Of a stretch of DNA of 64,000 nt, positions 3,805 through 64,000 are shown one piece after another. The first letter of the stretch is position 1. Each line of letters begins with the position of its first letter. Where the stretch lies: the IMG/VR virus record IMGVR_UViG_3300033066_002242, positions 1-64,000 of that record; one strand, 5' to 3'. The position numbers and the translations under genes are program-made. The notes under the pieces are model-generated. The model ran no database searches and was not told where the DNA came from. It was given only the letters and a program-made list of their open reading frames with translations. This DNA is from a virus (taxonomy: Duplodnaviria > Caudoviricetes).

Positions 3805-3861
3805 TCAATTCCGACCCCGCGAATGGGTATAAGTTTTACAGAGAAGAACCATACCGGTTCT
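3805..3861 (+). promoter_or_regulatory. Early promoter repeat copy 1 with leader hairpin
   Basis: TCAATT-N15-GGTATAAG, then AGAACC-atacc-GGTTCT. Confidence 0.85.
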
Positions 3862-4181: not shown

Positions 4182-4236
4182 TCAATTCCACCCCTGCGAA
4201 TCGGTATAAGTTTTATAGAGAAGGGCAATAACGCCC
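4182..4236 (+). promoter_or_regulatory. Early promoter repeat copy 2
   Basis: TCAATT-N15-GGTATAAG, then GGGC-aataac-GCCC. Confidence 0.85.
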
Positions 4237-4258: not shown

Positions 4259-4750
4259 ATGAACACACTGACAAGCTTCAAGCATGAAGGCGTGCGTTTT
4301 ACCCGTACCAGCGAGGGAACCTTCGCGGACGGCGTCCTCATTCGCGCCGATATGGGCATGGATTCGGACAACGATACCTGGCGGCGCTGGGCCAAGCGGG
4401 CCTACCGCCATGACCAGTGGAAAAAAAGCATGGACGCTGGCAAGGCGGCCGCCCTGCAGCAACTCGCAGACCGCGAGAACGCCAAGTGGGCGAGCCTGGA
4501 TGAGGAGGAGAAGGGCATCATGGTCAAGGCTGCTGCCATCCAGCGCAAGCTGGACGCTTGGGAGGAGTCCCGCGCGGTGGGTCTGGTGTCATCTCTGCCT
4601 CTGACCGTTCGCACTCATAATGCGCTGACCAAGGCTGGCATCTTGGAGATCAGCGACCTGGCGGCAAAGACGGACCTGGAGCTGCTGAAGCTCCCTGACA
4701 TGGGTCGCAAGTCCCTGCTGGAGGTCCGGGACGCCATCGCCGCGCTTTGA
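4259..4750 (+). CDS. Protein with C-terminal RNA polymerase alpha-CTD-like domain
   Basis: LPLTVRTHNAL...ISDL...ELLKLPDMGRKSLLEVRD aligns with RpoA LELTVRSANCL...IGDL...ELLKTPNLGKKSLTEIKD. Confidence 0.85.
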   Translation: MNTLTSFKHEGVRFTRTSEGTFADGVLIRADMGMDSDNDTWRRWAKRAYRHDQWKKSMDAGKAAALQQLADRENAKWASLDEEEKGIMVKAAAIQRKLDAWEESRAVGLVSSLPLTVRTHNALTKAGILEISDLAAKTDLELLKLPDMGRKSLLEVRDAIAAL

Positions 4751-4792: not shown

Positions 4793-4850
4793 TCAATTCC
4801 ACCCCTCCGAATGGGTATAAGTTTTACAGAGAAGAACCCTATCGGTTCTT
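4793..4850 (+). promoter_or_regulatory. Early promoter repeat copy 3
   Basis: TCAATT-N15-GGTATAAG, then AAGAACC-ctatc-GGTTCTT. Confidence 0.85.
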
Positions 4851-5544: not shown

Positions 5545-5599
5545 TCAATTCCGACCCCCCGAATCGGTATAAGTTTTATAGAGAAGGGCACTATCGCCC
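5545..5599 (+). promoter_or_regulatory. Early promoter repeat copy 4
   Basis: TCAATT-N15-GGTATAAG, then GGGC-actatc-GCCC. Confidence 0.85.
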
Positions 5600-17478: not shown

Positions 17479-17682
17479 ATGAAGTACACAGTCTTGTGCG
17501 TCCGCAAAGATGGGCAGGTATGCACCGTATTACCTGACGATCAAGGTTGGTCACAGCCGTTCGACAGCAGGGAGGACGCTGAGGCCGTCAGAACTGCCAT
17601 GGAAGAACTGCACGGCAAGGCGGGGTACCGGTACTTGCTGGTGGAGGTGCCTGTTCAATTGTCAGCCTCCGAAACGGTATAA
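17479..17682 (+). CDS. Hypothetical protein
   Basis: GAGG RBS; stop lies inside promoter copy 5. Confidence 0.7.
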   Translation: MKYTVLCVRKDGQVCTVLPDDQGWSQPFDSREDAEAVRTAMEELHGKAGYRYLLVEVPVQLSASETV

Positions 17683-17711
17683 GTTCTCTAGAGAAGAACC
17701 ATACCGGTTCT
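17655..17711 (+). promoter_or_regulatory. Early promoter repeat copy 5
   Basis: TCAATT-N15-GGTATAAG; leader and RBS nearly identical to copy 1. Confidence 0.85.
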
Positions 17712-18433: not shown

Positions 18434-18459
18434 AGCCCCAATGCAGGTATAAGGCATTG
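18431..18459 (+). promoter_or_regulatory. Variant early promoter TTTAGC-N9-GGTATAAG
   Basis: Core octamer flanked by the inverted repeat CAATGC/GCATTG. Confidence 0.65.
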
Positions 18460-25379: not shown

Positions 25380-25536
25380 ATCCAGGCGCCGGGGCAAGAC
25401 CCGGTACGTGTGTGTTGGCGACCCGTTCTCGGGTCACATCCTGTACTTTCCAGCAGACCAGGTGTCTGCCTGGTTCCGGGCGGGATCCTGGGGTGTAGGC
25501 AGGTACGAGTCAGGACATTGGAAAGTCAGGGTATAA
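25354..25536 (+). CDS. Small basic hypothetical protein
   Basis: Fills the gap; stop lies within GGTATAAG. Confidence 0.5.
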   Translation: MTIISKPYKSRRRGKTRYVCVGDPFSGHILYFPADQVSAWFRAGSWGVGRYESGHWKVRV

Positions 25537-25561
25537 GATCTTTGGAGGCGTCCTTGCCTCC
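25530..25561 (+). promoter_or_regulatory. GGTATAAG promoter core with leader hairpin
   Basis: GGAGGC-gtcctt-GCCTCC follows the core. Confidence 0.6.
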
Positions 25562-27466: not shown

Positions 27467-27495
27467 TCAATAATTTACACCTTTTTGGGTATAAG
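27467..27495 (+). promoter_or_regulatory. Early promoter TCAATA-N15-GGTATAAG
   Basis: Same spacing as the five repeat copies but a different spacer sequence. Confidence 0.75.
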
Positions 27496-42535: not shown

Positions 42536-43633
42536 TCAGACGTCGCCGTCGGCTTCAATGTCAAACGCAGCCAGGCGGAAGCCTTGCACGTTACCGTAGC
42601 CGATACCGACCGATTCGTACACGTAGAACTCGACCATGTCGGCCTCGTTCTTCAGGAACACCGTCGGCTCTTGCAGGCTGTAGAACTGGCCCAGATAGCC
42701 TTCGGGGGCGAAGATCGCCACCAGGTCACCGATATAGCCAGCATCAAGGTGTTCGCTCAGACCAGAGGTCATGATGTCCAGCTTGATGGTCGGAATGAAG
42801 GTGTAGCCATACATTCCGTTCATTTCCTCGCCACGGAAGTGGGAGTCAGCCAACAGCGAACCCACCACCGAGCTCGGACGAGACAGCAGCACGTTGTACA
42901 GGGTGTACGGCAGCAGGATCTTCGCCGGCTTTTGACGCGCGCCAACCAACTGGTTGATGGCACGGATCATGGTCTTCACGCCGAAGCCAGGACCCTTGTG
43001 GCTGGTGCCGGTGTCGTACCCAGGAGAGTAGATGCCGGTCTGCGAGGCCAGGCCGCCTGCACCGAGGTTCACCTTGTATGCGTAGTTGGCGTCAACTGCG
43101 TAGGCAGGGTTAACCACGACAGCACCGGCAACCAGCATGGTGCCGTGGTTGGCTGCAGCGATCTGCTTCAAGCCTACCATGTGGTTCACGTCTTCCTGTT
43201 CGTGAATATCCTTGACGCTGTTACCCTGGATGACCTGACGGATATCCGTGGCGTAGGTGGCCAGTTCGTACTTGGACTTCTTGAAGACCTTGGAAACGAT
43301 CTTCTCGAAAGTCACCTCGTACCGTGCGCCCTTGAAGTAGCGCACTTCGCTGGTGCCCAGCAGGGAGATCGTGGCAGCAGTGGAGTCAGGCTCCTTCTCC
43401 ACGATCTTGCGCGGCTGGTCGGTATCAACGTCGCGGTCCAGGTCCGCCGAGGTCAGCAGCTGCGGGGTGTAAATCTGACGGGTCGTGCCGTCTTCACGCA
43501 GCTTCTGGCGAACAAAGGCGGTCATGGACGTTTCGGCCGCCTTGGTCATTTGAGGGTCACCGCTATTCAGGCGGTCCACGAAAGCCGTATTGAAGAGACG
43601 GACATTGGTGGTTTCGATTCCATATTCAGCCAT
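42536..43633 (-). CDS. Major capsid protein
   Basis: Size and position after protease, scaffold and decoration genes; strongly biased codons; N-terminal MTKAA site. Confidence 0.75.
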   Translation of the reverse strand: MAEYGIETTNVRLFNTAFVDRLNSGDPQMTKAAETSMTAFVRQKLREDGTTRQIYTPQLLTSADLDRDVDTDQPRKIVEKEPDSTAATISLLGTSEVRYFKGARYEVTFEKIVSKVFKKSKYELATYATDIRQVIQGNSVKDIHEQEDVNHMVGLKQIAAANHGTMLVAGAVVVNPAYAVDANYAYKVNLGAGGLASQTGIYSPGYDTGTSHKGPGFGVKTMIRAINQLVGARQKPAKILLPYTLYNVLLSRPSSVVGSLLADSHFRGEEMNGMYGYTFIPTIKLDIMTSGLSEHLDAGYIGDLVAIFAPEGYLGQFYSLQEPTVFLKNEADMVEFYVYESVGIGYGNVQGFRLAAFDIEADGDV

Positions 43634-50495: not shown

Positions 50496-52445
50496 TCAAA
50501 TACGGTTCTGCGACGGAATGCCATCGCTAATGTACGAGTTCACCATCTGTTCCAGCTTCAGCACGCTGTCACCGACCTGGTTATAGGTATTCCGCAGCGC
50601 CATCGTAACGCCAGATGTCTGGTCAGGGGCGATGGTGTCAGAGTGCAGGCGAAGCAGCAGCAAGGTGCGGCCGATGCGATCCACGCAGTCCTTCATCAGC
50701 GGCAGGTATCCGCCAATCGTGGAGTACATGGAAGGATCCTGCAGGAACTGGATCATGATGGCGCCTTCCACGATATCCGGGTACTGGGTGTTGACGGCAT
50801 CGTTAAGGGCGTTGAGGTTGAAGTTGGTCAACTCCTCCTGCGGAGGTACCTGGCCATACTCCGGGATTTCACCCACCGGAGTAGCGCCCATGTCGACGGC
50901 CTTCTTCTGCATCATCACCGTGATCTTGCCCTTTTCCTTGGCGGACTTGATGAAGCCAAGGGAGGCTTGCTTGCCAAGGCCGTGGCCTACGATCAGCAGT
51001 TCCGCCAGTTCAGGCTCGGAGAGCTGCCGGCCGCCCATGCTAAAGAAGCCGTGGCCGTGGCTGGAAATATCCAGAGGGTCGCACAGCTCACCGCGAACAC
51101 GAAGTTCCATGCGGTTACGGGCGGAGGACAGACTATGCTCCAGGGCTTCGTCTTCACGGTGCCCGAGGACAATGGCGCTGCGGTGCGGGCTGGTCAGGAT
51201 GCGTCCAGGCTCAGCGAAGTAATCGCCAGAGTAGCCAGTAGACACCGTGATCACTACCTCCCCATTCTGCATCATGCTGGTGTAGTGACTGGAGCCGTAG
51301 GGCTGGCAGGCACGGATGATGATCATGGAGTCGGTATGGGTGACCAGACGCGCGGTGAACGGACCGAGAGCCCCTTTGTGGGTCAGCATGACGAAGGTAT
51401 CGCCATTGCAGACGGACTGCATGTCGCGCACCTTGCCCTGGGCATACATCTCTTTGGCCACATCCGACAACTCGATCGGCTGGCTGTGCAGCACGACGTC
51501 CCCATCTGGGCACCAACCACCGTACTCGGTGATCAGCAAGTACTTGCCGTCATCTGCCTTTTCAGCCTTGCCGTCTCCGGTCATGAACCCGCCACGAAGG
51601 CTGGTCTTACGCATCGGCAGGTCGATGCCGTAAATGCGAGGGGCGCGCTTGAGGATCATGGCGTTGACGGAGGAGCCGTCGAGACGCAGGGCGCGGTACG
51701 CCATGCCCTCTACTGCGCCGTCCACCTGGATCAGGCCTTCGTGCCCGCTGGCCATTTCCACGGCAGGCCGTGGCTCCTGGATATCACCCTTGATGTGATA
51801 GCCGCAGTCCAGGATATCCTTGATGACGGATATCTCTGCCGGGTTGATGTCGTTGGCCGAGGTCAGGATTTGCACCCCAGGTTCCGAGACTTCCGTCATC
51901 AAGCGGTTGACGCGGGGCAGCGGACGGTCCAGGGCGCTGGTCAGGTCGATGACTTCGTTCATGCGCGCCGTGATGCCCTTGTTCTCCATCAGCGTGGCGC
52001 GGAAACGATCAAACAGGCCTTGAGGGACCTGGGCCAGGAAGTCTTCCAGACCGGCCGACGCATAGGCGTACTTGCCGGTGCGCGGCGGCACGATCATGTT
52101 ATAGATGCTGGGGTTGACGTTGACGTACGACGGGATACGCTGAGGAGTCCCTATCCGCGTTCCCTGCATCGTGGTAATGACCTGGATGTAGGAAGGGGTC
52201 AACGGCTTGAATTTGTCCTCTGTGGTGTCGTAGACAGAGTCCAGCGGGAACACGATATCGTCGCGCGCCACTACCGGAATCAGGAATGCCCCTGCCGGCA
52301 GCGCCAGTACGAATACTCCGACGAAGACATTCTTCACCTGGGTGAAGCCTTGGGACAAGTCCTGAAACCGCAAGACGCCGCCCATCAGGGAGGGAGCCGT
52401 GATGCTCAGCTTGTTCATGGCCTCTTGCTGGAAGTCCTGGATCAT
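50496..52445 (-). CDS. Large virion-module protein of unknown function
   Basis: 649-aa ORF in the head operon. Confidence 0.7.
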   Translation of the reverse strand: MIQDFQQEAMNKLSITAPSLMGGVLRFQDLSQGFTQVKNVFVGVFVLALPAGAFLIPVVARDDIVFPLDSVYDTTEDKFKPLTPSYIQVITTMQGTRIGTPQRIPSYVNVNPSIYNMIVPPRTGKYAYASAGLEDFLAQVPQGLFDRFRATLMENKGITARMNEVIDLTSALDRPLPRVNRLMTEVSEPGVQILTSANDINPAEISVIKDILDCGYHIKGDIQEPRPAVEMASGHEGLIQVDGAVEGMAYRALRLDGSSVNAMILKRAPRIYGIDLPMRKTSLRGGFMTGDGKAEKADDGKYLLITEYGGWCPDGDVVLHSQPIELSDVAKEMYAQGKVRDMQSVCNGDTFVMLTHKGALGPFTARLVTHTDSMIIIRACQPYGSSHYTSMMQNGEVVITVSTGYSGDYFAEPGRILTSPHRSAIVLGHREDEALEHSLSSARNRMELRVRGELCDPLDISSHGHGFFSMGGRQLSEPELAELLIVGHGLGKQASLGFIKSAKEKGKITVMMQKKAVDMGATPVGEIPEYGQVPPQEELTNFNLNALNDAVNTQYPDIVEGAIMIQFLQDPSMYSTIGGYLPLMKDCVDRIGRTLLLLRLHSDTIAPDQTSGVTMALRNTYNQVGDSVLKLEQMVNSYISDGIPSQNRI

Positions 52446-52447
52446 GG

Positions 52448-54277
52448 TCAGTACCTGCCGTTTTCGCCTTCACCGAAGGCCTTGCCGAGAATGTAGGGAG
52501 TAATAGGGTCAGTGGACCGAGTCGGAGACTCATGCGCCATGGCCGCTGCTTCTATGATACTTGATTTTAGGTTAGACGACGCCAAACGGGATATCCAATT
52601 GGGGTCCAGCAGCTTGGATTGCTTCACGCCCGTGGCTATCGGGTCGACGATCATGCCGCTTTCGCTGATCGGAACCTCCGTAACACCTTTCTTATTCAGG
52701 TCCAGGATGTGGTACGCATCCAGCCGGGTGCCTGGCATGAGCTCCCCGATACGCCGGGACAGCACCTTACCGGCGGCGCGCTCGATGGGCACCATACGGT
52801 GGTCAGCATCCAGGATGTGCTGGATCTGGTTGACGTTGACCACGTCTCCCGGCAGGTAATCGCTGTCGCCGGGGTCGCGGATGGTCACGTACTTGGCCAT
52901 GTTCTTGGCGATGACGTCGAAGTGCCGGGGGTCGTACCCTTGACCGTACACTTCCCGCATCTTCTCGGCCAGGTACTTGCGACCGGCGCCATGGCCGCGA
53001 AGCTCGACCAGGTGCTTGGGATTGGGGGTGCCTTCCGCCAGCTGCTGGCCAGCGTAGACCTCGTCTCCGTGCTTGACCAGGACGCCCTGGTGACGATCAA
53101 CGAAGTGGCTGTGGTTGCCAATCCAGATATGAGAGTCGCCCAGGGCGGTCTTCTCGATCTTGGTGACCTTGCCTGGTACAGACGCCAAAGTGGCTTCATC
53201 CAGGAAGTTCTCCGGGATGGTCAGGATGTTACGGGCGGACTCCAAGGTGCCGGCCGTGCGCTTGACGCCGGAACCTGCCGTACCGCCTTGGTGCTTGGAG
53301 CCGATAACCGCCTGCGTCAGGCCTTCCGATATGGACTGGACACCGATGACGCCCACGTTCTCGCCGATAGGAGGGAATTCTCCGCGGGAGTCATGGCCGT
53401 AGCACTTCTGACAAATGCCTTCCGGGGCCTCACAGGTCTGCGGGTTGCGCACGACGACCATCTTCTTGCCGCTGTCCACCGCGTCCTTGTACTTGGCGTC
53501 GGTAAACACGGAGTCCGTGCCTGCTTCCACCATGCCGATGATCCGCTTCTTGTCAGAGATGGGGACATCGATGCCGTGGTGGGTCTTGCAGTCGTGGATC
53601 GTGATCACCTCATGAAATGCCGCCGGGATGATCTTCTTGAACAGCGCCCCTGGCTCCGAGGTGGCCATCTGTGTCTTGATGGTCGCCGCCCGGCCGCCGT
53701 AGGACATGGCCATGTGCTCTGCCGGGGATAGGCCCTCGGCAAAGGAGTGGCGAATCGGCAGAGGGATGGGAGTGCCCTCAATGTCGATCGACATCATGGG
53801 GCTGAACGTACCCTGACCGAGTTGCATGGGGTTGCCGCGCGCGCCGGTCATCGCCATAAGTCCCGCAGTGGACCCCTTGCCAACCATGTGCTTGAGGTTG
53901 ATCTTCTGGGAGGTCGACACGTAGGAGGAGGCCACGTCTTCCACCATGGCGTTCCGCTGCGACTTGGAAAGCTTGGGGTTGTTGGAGACCTCATTGATCT
54001 TGTCCGCGAACTCTGCCAGCAGCACATGGCGTTCAGGAGAGTCGTTCTCGTAGTCCGTCAGCGGCGTGGAGAACCCGTTAACCGTGGCGGTGTGGAAGAA
54101 CAAGTTGGACAACGCCTGGATGGACTCGTGCGCCTTGTCGCCGCCGTGCTTGATGCACAGGGACATGAGGTGCGCTACGCCAGGCTTGTCCAGCAGCATA
54201 TTCGGGTCGTAGTACTTCTGCGCCTCTTCGGGCAACAGGCTTTTGACCAACAAGCTACCGGCAGTGGACATGTACAC
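52448..54277 (-). CDS. Phage multisubunit RNA polymerase beta-prime subunit, C-terminal part
   Basis: GARGN, SFAEGL, bridge helix, DC.T..G, C...GICQKCYG Zn site, GENVGVI..QSISE..TQ......H.GG trigger loop, jaw, RHFDVI, switch regions. Confidence 0.93.
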   Translation of the reverse strand: MYMSTAGSLLVKSLLPEEAQKYYDPNMLLDKPGVAHLMSLCIKHGGDKAHESIQALSNLFFHTATVNGFSTPLTDYENDSPERHVLLAEFADKINEVSNNPKLSKSQRNAMVEDVASSYVSTSQKINLKHMVGKGSTAGLMAMTGARGNPMQLGQGTFSPMMSIDIEGTPIPLPIRHSFAEGLSPAEHMAMSYGGRAATIKTQMATSEPGALFKKIIPAAFHEVITIHDCKTHHGIDVPISDKKRIIGMVEAGTDSVFTDAKYKDAVDSGKKMVVVRNPQTCEAPEGICQKCYGHDSRGEFPPIGENVGVIGVQSISEGLTQAVIGSKHQGGTAGSGVKRTAGTLESARNILTIPENFLDEATLASVPGKVTKIEKTALGDSHIWIGNHSHFVDRHQGVLVKHGDEVYAGQQLAEGTPNPKHLVELRGHGAGRKYLAEKMREVYGQGYDPRHFDVIAKNMAKYVTIRDPGDSDYLPGDVVNVNQIQHILDADHRMVPIERAAGKVLSRRIGELMPGTRLDAYHILDLNKKGVTEVPISESGMIVDPIATGVKQSKLLDPNWISRLASSNLKSSIIEAAAMAHESPTRSTDPITPYILGKAFGEGENGRY

Positions 54278-54280
54278 CTC

Positions 54281-54829
54281 TCAGCGCAGGAAGCCGCGGG
54301 AGAAGATGCCCTTGGCGCTTCCCAGGAAGTCACGGCCGCTCTGGGCGGTCTCCTGGAGGACCTGTTTCAGTCCTTCCGCGGTCTGGATGTGAGCGTGCAA
54401 CGGGTCGGCCGGGTTGCTGCGAATCTGGTTCAGACGGTTGATCAAGGCATACTCGTGCTTGGGTGTCAGGCGCAGCGCTTTGGATGCTGCAACCGGATCG
54501 CCGTGAACCAAGTGGTGCAGTGCGCCGCCCACATCGGCACGGCTGTAGCCACCGTAGAACATACCCGCCGTGTCGAGGGCGTTCTCCACGCTCTTCATGG
54601 CGCCCAGACCCTTGTTGGCCACGTCGGATACCGCGGTGTGGGCGCTTTGCAAGCCAGCCAAGGTTTTTTCAGCCAAGGTAGGGGCAGGGATGGCAGACAG
54701 CTTGTACTTGTCCAGCGCACCGGCAGCCAGCATGCCGCCTCCTACGGCTCCCGTGGCTCCTATGGCTACGTTCCGGGCAGTGTTGTCGGCTGCGATCTTG
54801 CGCATACCGCTTTCGTAGATGTTGTCCAT
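54281..54829 (-). CDS. Leader-family virion cargo with N-proximal Gly-zipper
   Basis: MDNIYESGMRKIAA...VAIGATGAVGGGMLAAG. Confidence 0.75.
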   Translation of the reverse strand: MDNIYESGMRKIAADNTARNVAIGATGAVGGGMLAAGALDKYKLSAIPAPTLAEKTLAGLQSAHTAVSDVANKGLGAMKSVENALDTAGMFYGGYSRADVGGALHHLVHGDPVAASKALRLTPKHEYALINRLNQIRSNPADPLHAHIQTAEGLKQVLQETAQSGRDFLGSAKGIFSRGFLR

Positions 54830-63587: not shown

Positions 63588-64000
63588 TACACCGTCTCCT
63601 CGATCTCGAATTCCGCAGGGAACGCTTCTGCATTGTTGCCATTGGCGTTCAGTGAGTCATTATTATACAGGTACGACCCTGTCGGGCTGGGAACGTCTGC
63701 CCCATTCACCACAGAGTACGTGAAAGGCCCGTACAGAGGGTCATCAACCCGTGAGGCAGAGTAGGATACGTTATGCGACCCGGCATTGCCCTTGGACAGG
63801 TTGGTAGCCAGCAGCTTGGCGGTGTTCGTCACGGAAGTGCCTATGGGTGCCCGGAACTTGGACACGGAAGGCAGGAACTGCACCACCCGCTTCACGAACC
63901 CTCCTACCACGTAGTTCTCTGTCCCTGCTTCCAGGCCTGCCACGGGAATGCCTGCCAAATTGAGAGCAGACAGACCGGAGAATACCGCAGGACCCTTGGC
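63587..64000 (-). CDS. Virion structural protein (5' truncated)
   Basis: Frame open to the window edge. Confidence 0.65.
   Translation of the reverse strand, partial: AKGPAVFSGLSALNLAGIPVAGLEAGTENYVVGGFVKRVVQFLPSVSKFRAPIGTSVTNTAKLLATNLSKGNAGSHNVSYSASRVDDPLYGPFTYSVVNGADVPSPTGSYLYNNDSLNANGNNAEAFPAEFEIEETV

Follow-up and report, generated by a model that had tools for sequence, protein, structure and literature searches.

A bacterial-type RNA polymerase divided within beta-prime in an Arash-type phage genome and its possible role as a virion enzyme

The beta-prime C gene, its partner and the surrounding genes

At positions 52448-54271 (minus strand) of the IMG/VR virus record IMGVR_UViG_3300033066_002242, an open reading frame specifies the C-terminal half, termed here beta-prime C, of the beta-prime subunit of a bacterial-type RNA polymerase (RNAP). 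The sequence analyzed (the window) is a stretch of 64,000 nucleotides (nt), bases 1-64000 of the record. The record itself is 95,555 bp in length and is estimated to be 66% complete; features above position 64000 lie outside the window. The window has a guanine plus cytosine (GC) content of ~60% and numerous spurious open reading frames. The two RNAP genes of the record are the following.

52448-54271, minus strand: C-terminal half of beta-prime, 607 amino acids (aa), identified by Pfam, PDB, family alignment and fold match
70001-74785, minus strand, outside the window in the same record: partner subunit, 1594 aa, whole beta fused to the N-terminal half of beta-prime

The annotated start of beta-prime C is an ATG at 54271, as in the database copy of 607 aa; a GTG at 54277, two codons earlier, is an alternative. 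The Pfam model RNA_pol_Rpb1_5 (PF04998) matches residues 182-472 (E = 8e-19; 68.5 bits against a gathering cut-off of 28.5). A phmmer search of the PDB gave bacterial beta-prime subunits (E = 7e-42 for Thermus), with Clostridioides, Bacillus and others matching likewise, and the identity to bacterial beta-prime subunits is ~24%-30%. An AlphaFold2 model with a predicted local distance difference test (pLDDT) score of 74.5 was used in a Foldseek search, which yielded the Thermus, Clostridioides and Staphylococcus beta-prime subunits (E ~1e-27, ~625 columns). The open reading frame is a real gene and encodes the C-terminal half of a bacterial-type beta-prime. An original prediction, made from the nt sequence without database searches, had called it a bacterial-like beta-prime piece, and the Pfam, PDB and Foldseek results agree with this. 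The identity of beta-prime C and the existence of its partner can be regarded as settled, with very little room for doubt.

The funnel, bridge helix, Zn site and trigger loop that had been predicted are all found in beta-prime C. In the phmmer alignment the bridge-helix region corresponds to Thermus beta-prime positions 1020-1124, and the Zn site and trigger loop correspond to positions 1179-1397 with no large gap. Conserved region H gives a weak match only. The Zn-site residues C228, C280, C287 and C290 (equivalent to E. coli C814, C888, C895 and C898) are invariant in 28 family members, as are Q320, K326 and H327 of the trigger loop. The cellular trigger loop sequence is Q-L-T-[ML]-R-T-F-H; that of the window protein is Q-A-V-I-G-S-K-H, and the family shows Q-x-x-[LI]-[GSA]-[ST]-K-H. 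The equivalents of M932, R933 and F935 are substituted in the window protein. The alignment confirms the earlier observation that the Q and H are kept and that M-R-T-F is replaced by I-G-S-K. Because the alignment to the Thermus beta-prime, which has no SI3, is contiguous across the trigger loop, beta-prime C has no SI3 insertion, as had also been predicted.

The DFDGD motif is not present in the beta-prime C open reading frame. The original prediction had pointed to the missing NADFDGD, and the motif sits in the partner in the form AADFDGD. The position of the break between the two chains was compared with that in cyanobacteria. Residue 26 of beta-prime C aligns to residues 5-12 of the cyanobacterial RpoC2 chains 8gzg_Z, 8h3v_B and 8syi_Z; therefore the start of the gene coincides with the cyanobacterial split. 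The partner extends ~75-79 residues beyond its match to residue 549 of the cyanobacterial gamma subunit (624 aa), i.e. the two ends coincide within ~5 residues. A start near the rpoC1/rpoC2 break had been proposed from the sequence, and the agreement is within ~20 residues.

A search for the partner subunits, which were expected to lie elsewhere in the genome, located the fusion of beta and the N-terminal half of beta-prime (termed beta::beta-prime-N) beside the portal gene. It displays the Pfam domains Rpb2_3, Rpb2_6, Rpb1_1 and Rpb1_2. In comparison with the PDB, residues 85-1015 represent a nearly full-length beta and residues 1143-1528 represent beta-prime positions 153-560. The motif GNKG is at residue 805 and AADFDGD at residue 1433. 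The partner holds a single Cys, and thus the N-terminal Zn ribbon of beta-prime is missing. The Asn of NADFDGD contacts the ribose of the incoming nucleoside triphosphate. Across the family (loci L018-L065) the motif is A[AG]D[FY]DGD, with S for the first A in two loci, and no member has the Asn; related single-chain enzymes, described below, have N or G at this position. Since the partner comprises beta and the N-terminal half of beta-prime, the catalytic core consists of two chains, beta::beta-prime-N and beta-prime C. No second RNAP set was found in the genome of this record.

The neighboring genes are as follows. The homologs named are those of Salmonella phage Arash (OQ632216), the best cultured match.

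75143-76882, minus strand, outside the window: portal gene, upstream of the partner gene (PHROG E = 7e-10; 43% identical to Arash gp204)
54281-54829, minus strand: 182 aa protein with the N-terminal leader MDNIYESGMRKIA (found by regular expression), a neighbor and no part of the polymerase
50496-52445, minus strand: gene immediately downstream of beta-prime C, homolog of the Arash virion protein gp218
42536-43633, minus strand: major capsid protein, the anchor of the structural block (46% identical to the Arash major capsid protein gp226)
393, 36188, 37387, 38959, 39915, 40400, 50479 and 54823, all minus strand: positions in the window of the eight proteins that begin with the leader in the form N-x-[YFH]-x-x-x-M-x-K-x-A

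One small open reading frame lies between the portal gene and the partner gene. The product of 50496-52445 has 27% identity to gp218 over 669 aa (tblastn, E = 1e-51), and the region downstream of beta-prime C contains homologs of Arash gp218-gp226 (head genes), including the major capsid protein. Approximately 16 kb separate the two RNAP genes, and this segment contains tail-fiber-type, DUF4376 and amidase genes. The original prediction had placed beta-prime C inside a head gene block. This is almost correct: the head genes are on the downstream side, and the tail-fiber-type and amidase genes are on the upstream side. The order of portal, 129 aa open reading frame and fusion gene, followed at a distance by beta-prime C, head genes and major capsid protein, is shared with Arash. 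In Arash the gene after beta-prime C encodes the SNF2 helicase gp217 (L001, 13803-15221); there is no counterpart at that position here.

The gene that directly precedes beta-prime C begins with the leader sequence, as had been noted. A regular expression for this leader, N-x-[YF]-x-x-x-M-x-K-x-A, matched 8 N-termini in the genome and none in 200 shuffles; a BLASTP search for paralogs did not detect the family, the leader being too short for it. Among 43 related loci no leader was found near beta-prime C except for one in the closest relative (L017), and thus the adjacency is local. The leader gene is a local trait of a sub-lineage and was rejected as a conserved companion of the RNAP.

Relatives and partitioning of the chains

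The Arash proteins gp216 and gp206 have 53% and 47% identity to beta-prime C and to the partner, respectively. Vibrio phages D181, D148 and D69 match at 48% identity. In the protein database the family accounts for at least 120 clusters (605-610 aa, 48%-83% identity), found on contigs of up to 182 kb, and 62 related loci were obtained from IMG/VR. A single beta-prime C gene was found in Arash and in each of five complete relatives, whose genomes measure 175-185 kb and in three cases carry terminal repeats. The alpha and omega domains PF01000, PF01193 and PF01192 were not found in this record or in the complete Arash genome (controls 14/14).

The polymerase is partitioned in different ways. Some family loci display the beta::beta-prime-N fusion, as in this phage. 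Other loci have three open reading frames: beta with the first ~110 aa of beta-prime, a catalytic middle of ~385 aa, and beta-prime C. In one of these (L031) the three are contiguous and follow a portal-sized gene. The next-nearest relatives are single chains of ~2000-2100 aa that contain all of beta and beta-prime, with 24%-31% identity. These full fusions are on viral contigs of up to ~200 kb, and some have inteins or an M23 peptidase domain.

Several further variants were observed. At L055 (1470-6946) the beta part is in two pieces (query positions 7-518 and 520-1523) that are ~0.9 kb apart; here beta is either divided once more or interrupted by an insertion. Hint/LAGLIDADG inteins are present in P0133, P0135, P0139, P0140, P0143, P0144, P0150, P0151 and P0158, and intein-bearing homologs of beta-prime C have lengths of 1130-2250 aa, with one or two sites at family positions ~200 and ~330. 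The M23 peptidase domain was seen in the distant relatives P0128, P0130, P0164, P0174 and P0178, which are full fusions or beta-prime proteins. A cell-wall hydrolase of the M23 type fused to a polymerase would fit a virion or ejection context.

Four other cultured phages, Cobetia phage Carin-5 (L013), Rhizobium phage RHph_TM3_3_6 (L010), Ralstonia phage RP13 (L011) and Escherichia phage IME392 (L012), also encode beta-prime-like proteins. Their genomes are 110-207 kb, and the beta-prime is unsplit (~1100 aa) or split (~490-500 aa). RP13 and IME392 have in common the K-H ending of the trigger loop, and the beta-prime gene of Carin-5 adjoins an annotated sigma factor. The proteins of these four phages fall outside the Arash-type clade as well as the cellular one.

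Promoters, virion association and proposed role

The following features concern transcription initiation.

3826-3833, plus strand: GGTATAAG promoter core (TCAATT, 17 nt, TATAAG)
4203-4210, plus strand: GGTATAAG promoter core, upstream of the gene at 4259-4750
4259-4750, plus strand: 163 aa protein with an alpha C-terminal domain (alpha-CTD; PF03118, E = 2e-13), behind the promoter at 4203
4814-4821, plus strand: GGTATAAG promoter core
5566-5573, plus strand: GGTATAAG promoter core
17676-17683, plus strand: GGTATAAG promoter core
18446-18453, plus strand: GGTATAAG promoter core
25530-25537, plus strand: GGTATAAG promoter core
27488-27495, plus strand: GGTATAAG promoter core
83527-84450, minus strand, outside the window: sigma70-family factor of the gp196 type, 307 aa, with regions r2 and r4 (PHROG E = 2e-29)

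All eight copies of GGTATAAG in the window are on the strand opposite to the structural genes and none is on the same strand (0.6 expected). The whole 95.5-kb record has 14 on the plus strand and 0 on the minus strand. Arash shows 30 opposite against one on the same strand (controls, 2 and 3), and 43 family loci with a GC content of 38%-60% show 106 copies opposite to beta-prime C and 8 on the same strand (controls, 7 and 11). Here the context is TCAATT-17 nt-TATAAG with G at -14 and -13, followed by a conserved start region. A ribosome binding site and ATG are ~45-55 nt downstream, and a terminator hairpin is often present 5′ of the site. GGTATAAG is a genuine strand-biased promoter element of the family as a whole; the original prediction had treated it as a promoter, and both the strand bias and the conservation bear this out. 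No GGTATAAG motif was found in 11 of the 13 loci of single-chain full-fusion relatives.

Two explanations differ in what reads these promoters. The one favored here is that the phage RNAP is packaged in the virion and uses a phage sigma factor at GGTATAAG. The alternative is that the polymerase is real but acts only inside the cell, e.g. on middle or late genes, and that GGTATAAG is read by the host core polymerase with host sigma70 or a phage sigma. The layout of the promoter, which is bipartite and sigma70-like with a 17-nt spacer, is in favor of this alternative. In addition, it is common for large phages to encode sigma factors that redirect the host core (PMC7824862), and the early alpha-CTD-like protein hints at interaction with a polymerase that has alpha-dependent contacts. 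The family logo, tTGGTATAAG, is similar to an extended -10 element (TGnTATAAT), except that position -7 is G. This position is nearly always T in promoters of the host sigma70, so that the uniform G is unfavorable to a host sigma70, and the motif is identical in phages across the GC range given above. Because of these two properties the simplest reader would be a phage specificity factor. In Arash both gp10 and gp196 are sigma-like, and each of the five complete relatives has one or two sigma70-family genes. The chance that the GGTATAAG promoters are read by this enzyme together with a phage sigma is put at about even.

The virion data come from the published mass spectrometry of Arash (PMC10585845). 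The protein gp206 ranked first in spectra as well as in unique peptides (3516 and 128, respectively), ahead of the capsid protein. With 1210 spectra and 40 peptides, gp216 took fifth place in the spectral ranking, and 24 peptides were assigned to the sigma-like gp10. The gp218 protein and the SNF2 helicase gp217 gave 1149 and 1148 spectra, gp217 being as abundant in virions as gp216 (PMC10585845). The top rank of gp206 speaks against a polymerase confined to the cell. The location of both RNAP genes within the structural module, with the fusion gene adjoining the portal gene, and the M23 peptidase fusions among relatives likewise speak against the intracellular explanation. The original prediction had assigned beta-prime C to a virion-packaged RNAP. 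In these data the Arash orthologs rank with the most abundant proteins; for this phage, packaging is likely, judged from the ortholog data and gene position. Taken together, the intracellular explanation is considered unlikely, though it is to be taken seriously.

The rifampicin pocket of the partner was also aligned, with the Clostridioides beta as a guide. In cluster I, the residues equivalent to E. coli F514, D516, H526, R529 and S531 are A, S, N, K and T, and the changes of H526 to N and of S531 to T are present in every aligned family sequence. Substitutions at these positions confer rifampicin resistance in bacteria; therefore the enzyme is predicted to be, and probably is, rifampicin insensitive.

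From these data we infer the following role for the enzyme. The two polypeptides, beta::beta-prime-N (1594 aa) and beta-prime C (607 aa), would form a core without alpha or omega. Both genes are on the strand of the structural genes, and thus the two chains would probably be made late. The enzyme would be packaged in the capsid and injected along with the DNA. With the phage sigma70-family factor, it would then begin transcription at the TCAATT-17 nt-TATAAG (GGTATAAG) promoters of the non-structural genes on the opposite strand. A rough probability of 0.6 is assigned to this explanation as a whole.

Several points weigh against it. Packaging in this phage is derived from an Arash ortholog with 53% identity. 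The Arash virion set consists of 116 proteins and includes ribonucleotide reductases and ligases, and its authors allow for carry-over (PMC10585845). Since so many proteins were detected and metabolic enzymes are among them, abundant cytoplasmic proteins may have been carried over, which makes contamination plausible and favors an intracellular enzyme. A sigma factor of the Arash gp10 type was not found in this ~66% complete record, where the nearest match was insignificant (E = 0.01). A phage sigma could equally steer the host core polymerase to GGTATAAG. A single RNAP set also leaves the transcription of the structural strand unexplained. Finally, the predicted active site departs from the cellular consensus, with N changed to A in NADFDGD, and with R changed to G or S and F to K in the trigger loop.

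The packaged, sigma-using enzyme may be extended to the Arash-type phages in general. It is suggested, tentatively and with somewhat more doubt than confidence, that these phages inject an alpha-less two-chain RNAP with a co-packaged phage sigma, that the two together recognize the extended -10-like promoter with G at -7, and that early transcription of these phages is independent of the host polymerase. We know of no virion RNAP that uses a sigma70-family factor. If the proposal is true, the enzyme would represent a minimal natural scaffold for the assembly of a bacterial-type core without alpha.

Two other observations relate to promoters. A GGTATAAG promoter outside the window (83427-83434, plus strand) follows an operon of SNF2 and ResIII helicases (79928-83423, plus strand) that adjoins the sigma gene, and it points into the 3′ end of that gene. 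As only an open reading frame of ~30-40 aa follows, this promoter may give an antisense transcript. The sequence TG-n-TAAACT is found upstream of some structural-strand operons (2729, 41390, 49247 and 58932, minus strand). It was considered as a second promoter class and rejected as too weak, since TAAACT occurs 8 times on the minus strand and 4 times on the plus strand, which is not significant.

Origin of the family and comparison with known systems

A tree of the beta-prime C region was constructed from 74 sequences (IQ-TREE, LG+G4 model, quick search, SH-aLRT support; unrooted). The cellular sampling was modest and consisted of Actinomycetota, Planctomycetota, Bacillota, Pseudomonadota and a few others, with no cyanobacteria or archaea. 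The Arash-type family forms a clade with 100% support, inside a viral side of 45 rows (99% support) that includes 27 full fusions. The 23 cellular beta-prime sequences that were sampled all fall in one clade (99%). For the last ~70 residues, the scores are 25-40 bits in viral fusions and ~0-4 bits in cellular beta-prime.

The phiKZ/AR9-type jumbo-phage enzymes also have a beta-prime broken at this site, have no alpha or omega, and are associated with virions, as in a relative of the phage described here. Membership of this phage in their family (as the virion set) is very improbable and was rejected. With the family profile, phiKZ gp123 gave no match at a threshold as permissive as E = 10, while cellular beta-prime sequences scored 100-230 bits. 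The PHROG family phrog_25354 matched at E = 7e-43, as compared with E = 2e-15 and 2e-9 for phiKZ-like families. In addition, beta is intact and fused, there is one RNAP set and not two, and sigma factors are present.

A recently captured or contaminating host rpoC piece, or a decaying pseudogene, could account for the ~24%-30% identity to bacterial beta-prime and for the cyanobacteria-like split point, but the chance of this is negligible in view of the family size (at least 120 clusters), the invariant functional residues, the Arash synteny, the clade apart from cells, the C-terminal 70 aa common only to viral fusions and the missing SI3. Recent capture of the enzyme from a host is thus rejected. 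For a host with the proteobacterial SI3 this had been argued in the original prediction, and the separation of the family from the 23 cellular sequences in the tree upholds it.

Studies of phage multisubunit RNAPs have so far dealt almost only with the very divergent phiKZ/AR9 group. The Arash-type enzymes resemble bacterial RNAP far more closely, and therefore bacterial structures and genetics should transfer directly. The family is characterized by the absence of alpha, omega and the beta-prime Zn ribbon, by partitioning into one, two or three chains, by altered catalytic residues (among them A at the equivalent of N458), by co-occurrence with sigma factors and by one sharp promoter. It is often encountered in metagenomes, and one member, Arash, is in culture on Salmonella Typhimurium ATCC 14028, so that alpha-less assembly, sigma use, virion delivery and early transcription independent of the host are testable.

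Multisubunit RNAPs in phage virions are of a known kind, and the Arash ortholog has been published. The Arash paper and GenBank entry name gp206 ‘beta’ and gp216 ‘beta-prime’ (PMC10585845, OQ632216); no published mention was found of gp206 as a fusion, of gp216 as the C-terminal half only, or of the promoter. A literature search for the architecture of beta::beta-prime-N with beta-prime C yielded the Arash paper and general reviews of jumbo phages and nothing else. In the literature searched, no account was found of this architecture and its variants, of the link with sigma factors, of the changes in the active site or of the family promoter. Arash and this phage have in common the orthologous RNAP pair, the gene order from portal to capsid, the GGTATAAG motif and the sigma-like genes. 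They differ in that Arash has gp217 after beta-prime C and ~5 kb between its RNAP genes, compared with the ~16 kb here.

The phiKZ/AR9 RNAPs are similar in having phage-encoded beta and beta-prime without alpha or omega, with one form packaged (PMC7598289, PMC7824862), and phiKZ-type enzymes too split beta-prime at the cyanobacterial-type site (PMC7598289). They differ in being far more diverged from cellular RNAP, in having beta in two to three pieces and in having two paralogous sets. The phiKZ/AR9 phages have no sigma, and a phage-specific subunit recognizes the promoters (PMC7598289, PMC7824862); the Arash-type genomes, in contrast, carry sigma factors. Infection by phiKZ and PBS2 is rifampicin resistant, but that by the related jumbo phages RSL2 and RSF1 is not (PMC7598289, PMC7824862).

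The mReC group (Weinheimer and Aylward, 2020; PMC7481178) is also a viral beta/beta-prime clade apart from cells, found on large metagenomic phage contigs. To be included in mReC, a sequence had to contain the NADxDGD motif and to match COG0086 over 800 aa or more (PMC7481178). The family described here was probably filtered out of that set because of its A[AG]D[FY]DGD motif and its split beta-prime (607 aa). Six metagenome numbers of family loci were not among the mReC contigs in the part of the lists that was compared, and the mReC paper does not deal with enzyme fusion or splitting, sigma, virions or promoters (PMC7481178).

The cyanobacterial and plastid RpoC1 and RpoC2 subunits have the beta-prime break at a matching place (within ~20 residues). 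Cyanobacterial RpoC2 has a large SI3 and is ~1300 aa; the phage beta-prime C, in contrast, has no SI3 and is 607 aa. The cyanobacterial gamma subunit is free-standing, whereas the N-terminal half of the phage beta-prime is fused to beta (in the three-piece relatives the first ~110 aa stay on beta). The phage enzyme is also without alpha and omega, unlike the cyanobacterial RNAP. In the PDB search, beta-prime C scored lower against cyanobacterial chains (E = 1e-33 to 1e-29) than against Thermus and Clostridia (E = 1e-42 to 1e-39).

A fusion of beta and beta-prime is found in cells as well. The rpoB-rpoC fusions of Helicobacter and Wolbachia are cellular, full-length and head-to-tail, and these enzymes retain alpha and omega. 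Unlike them, the phage fusion ends half-way through beta-prime, and the remaining half is encoded by a separate gene, beta-prime C.

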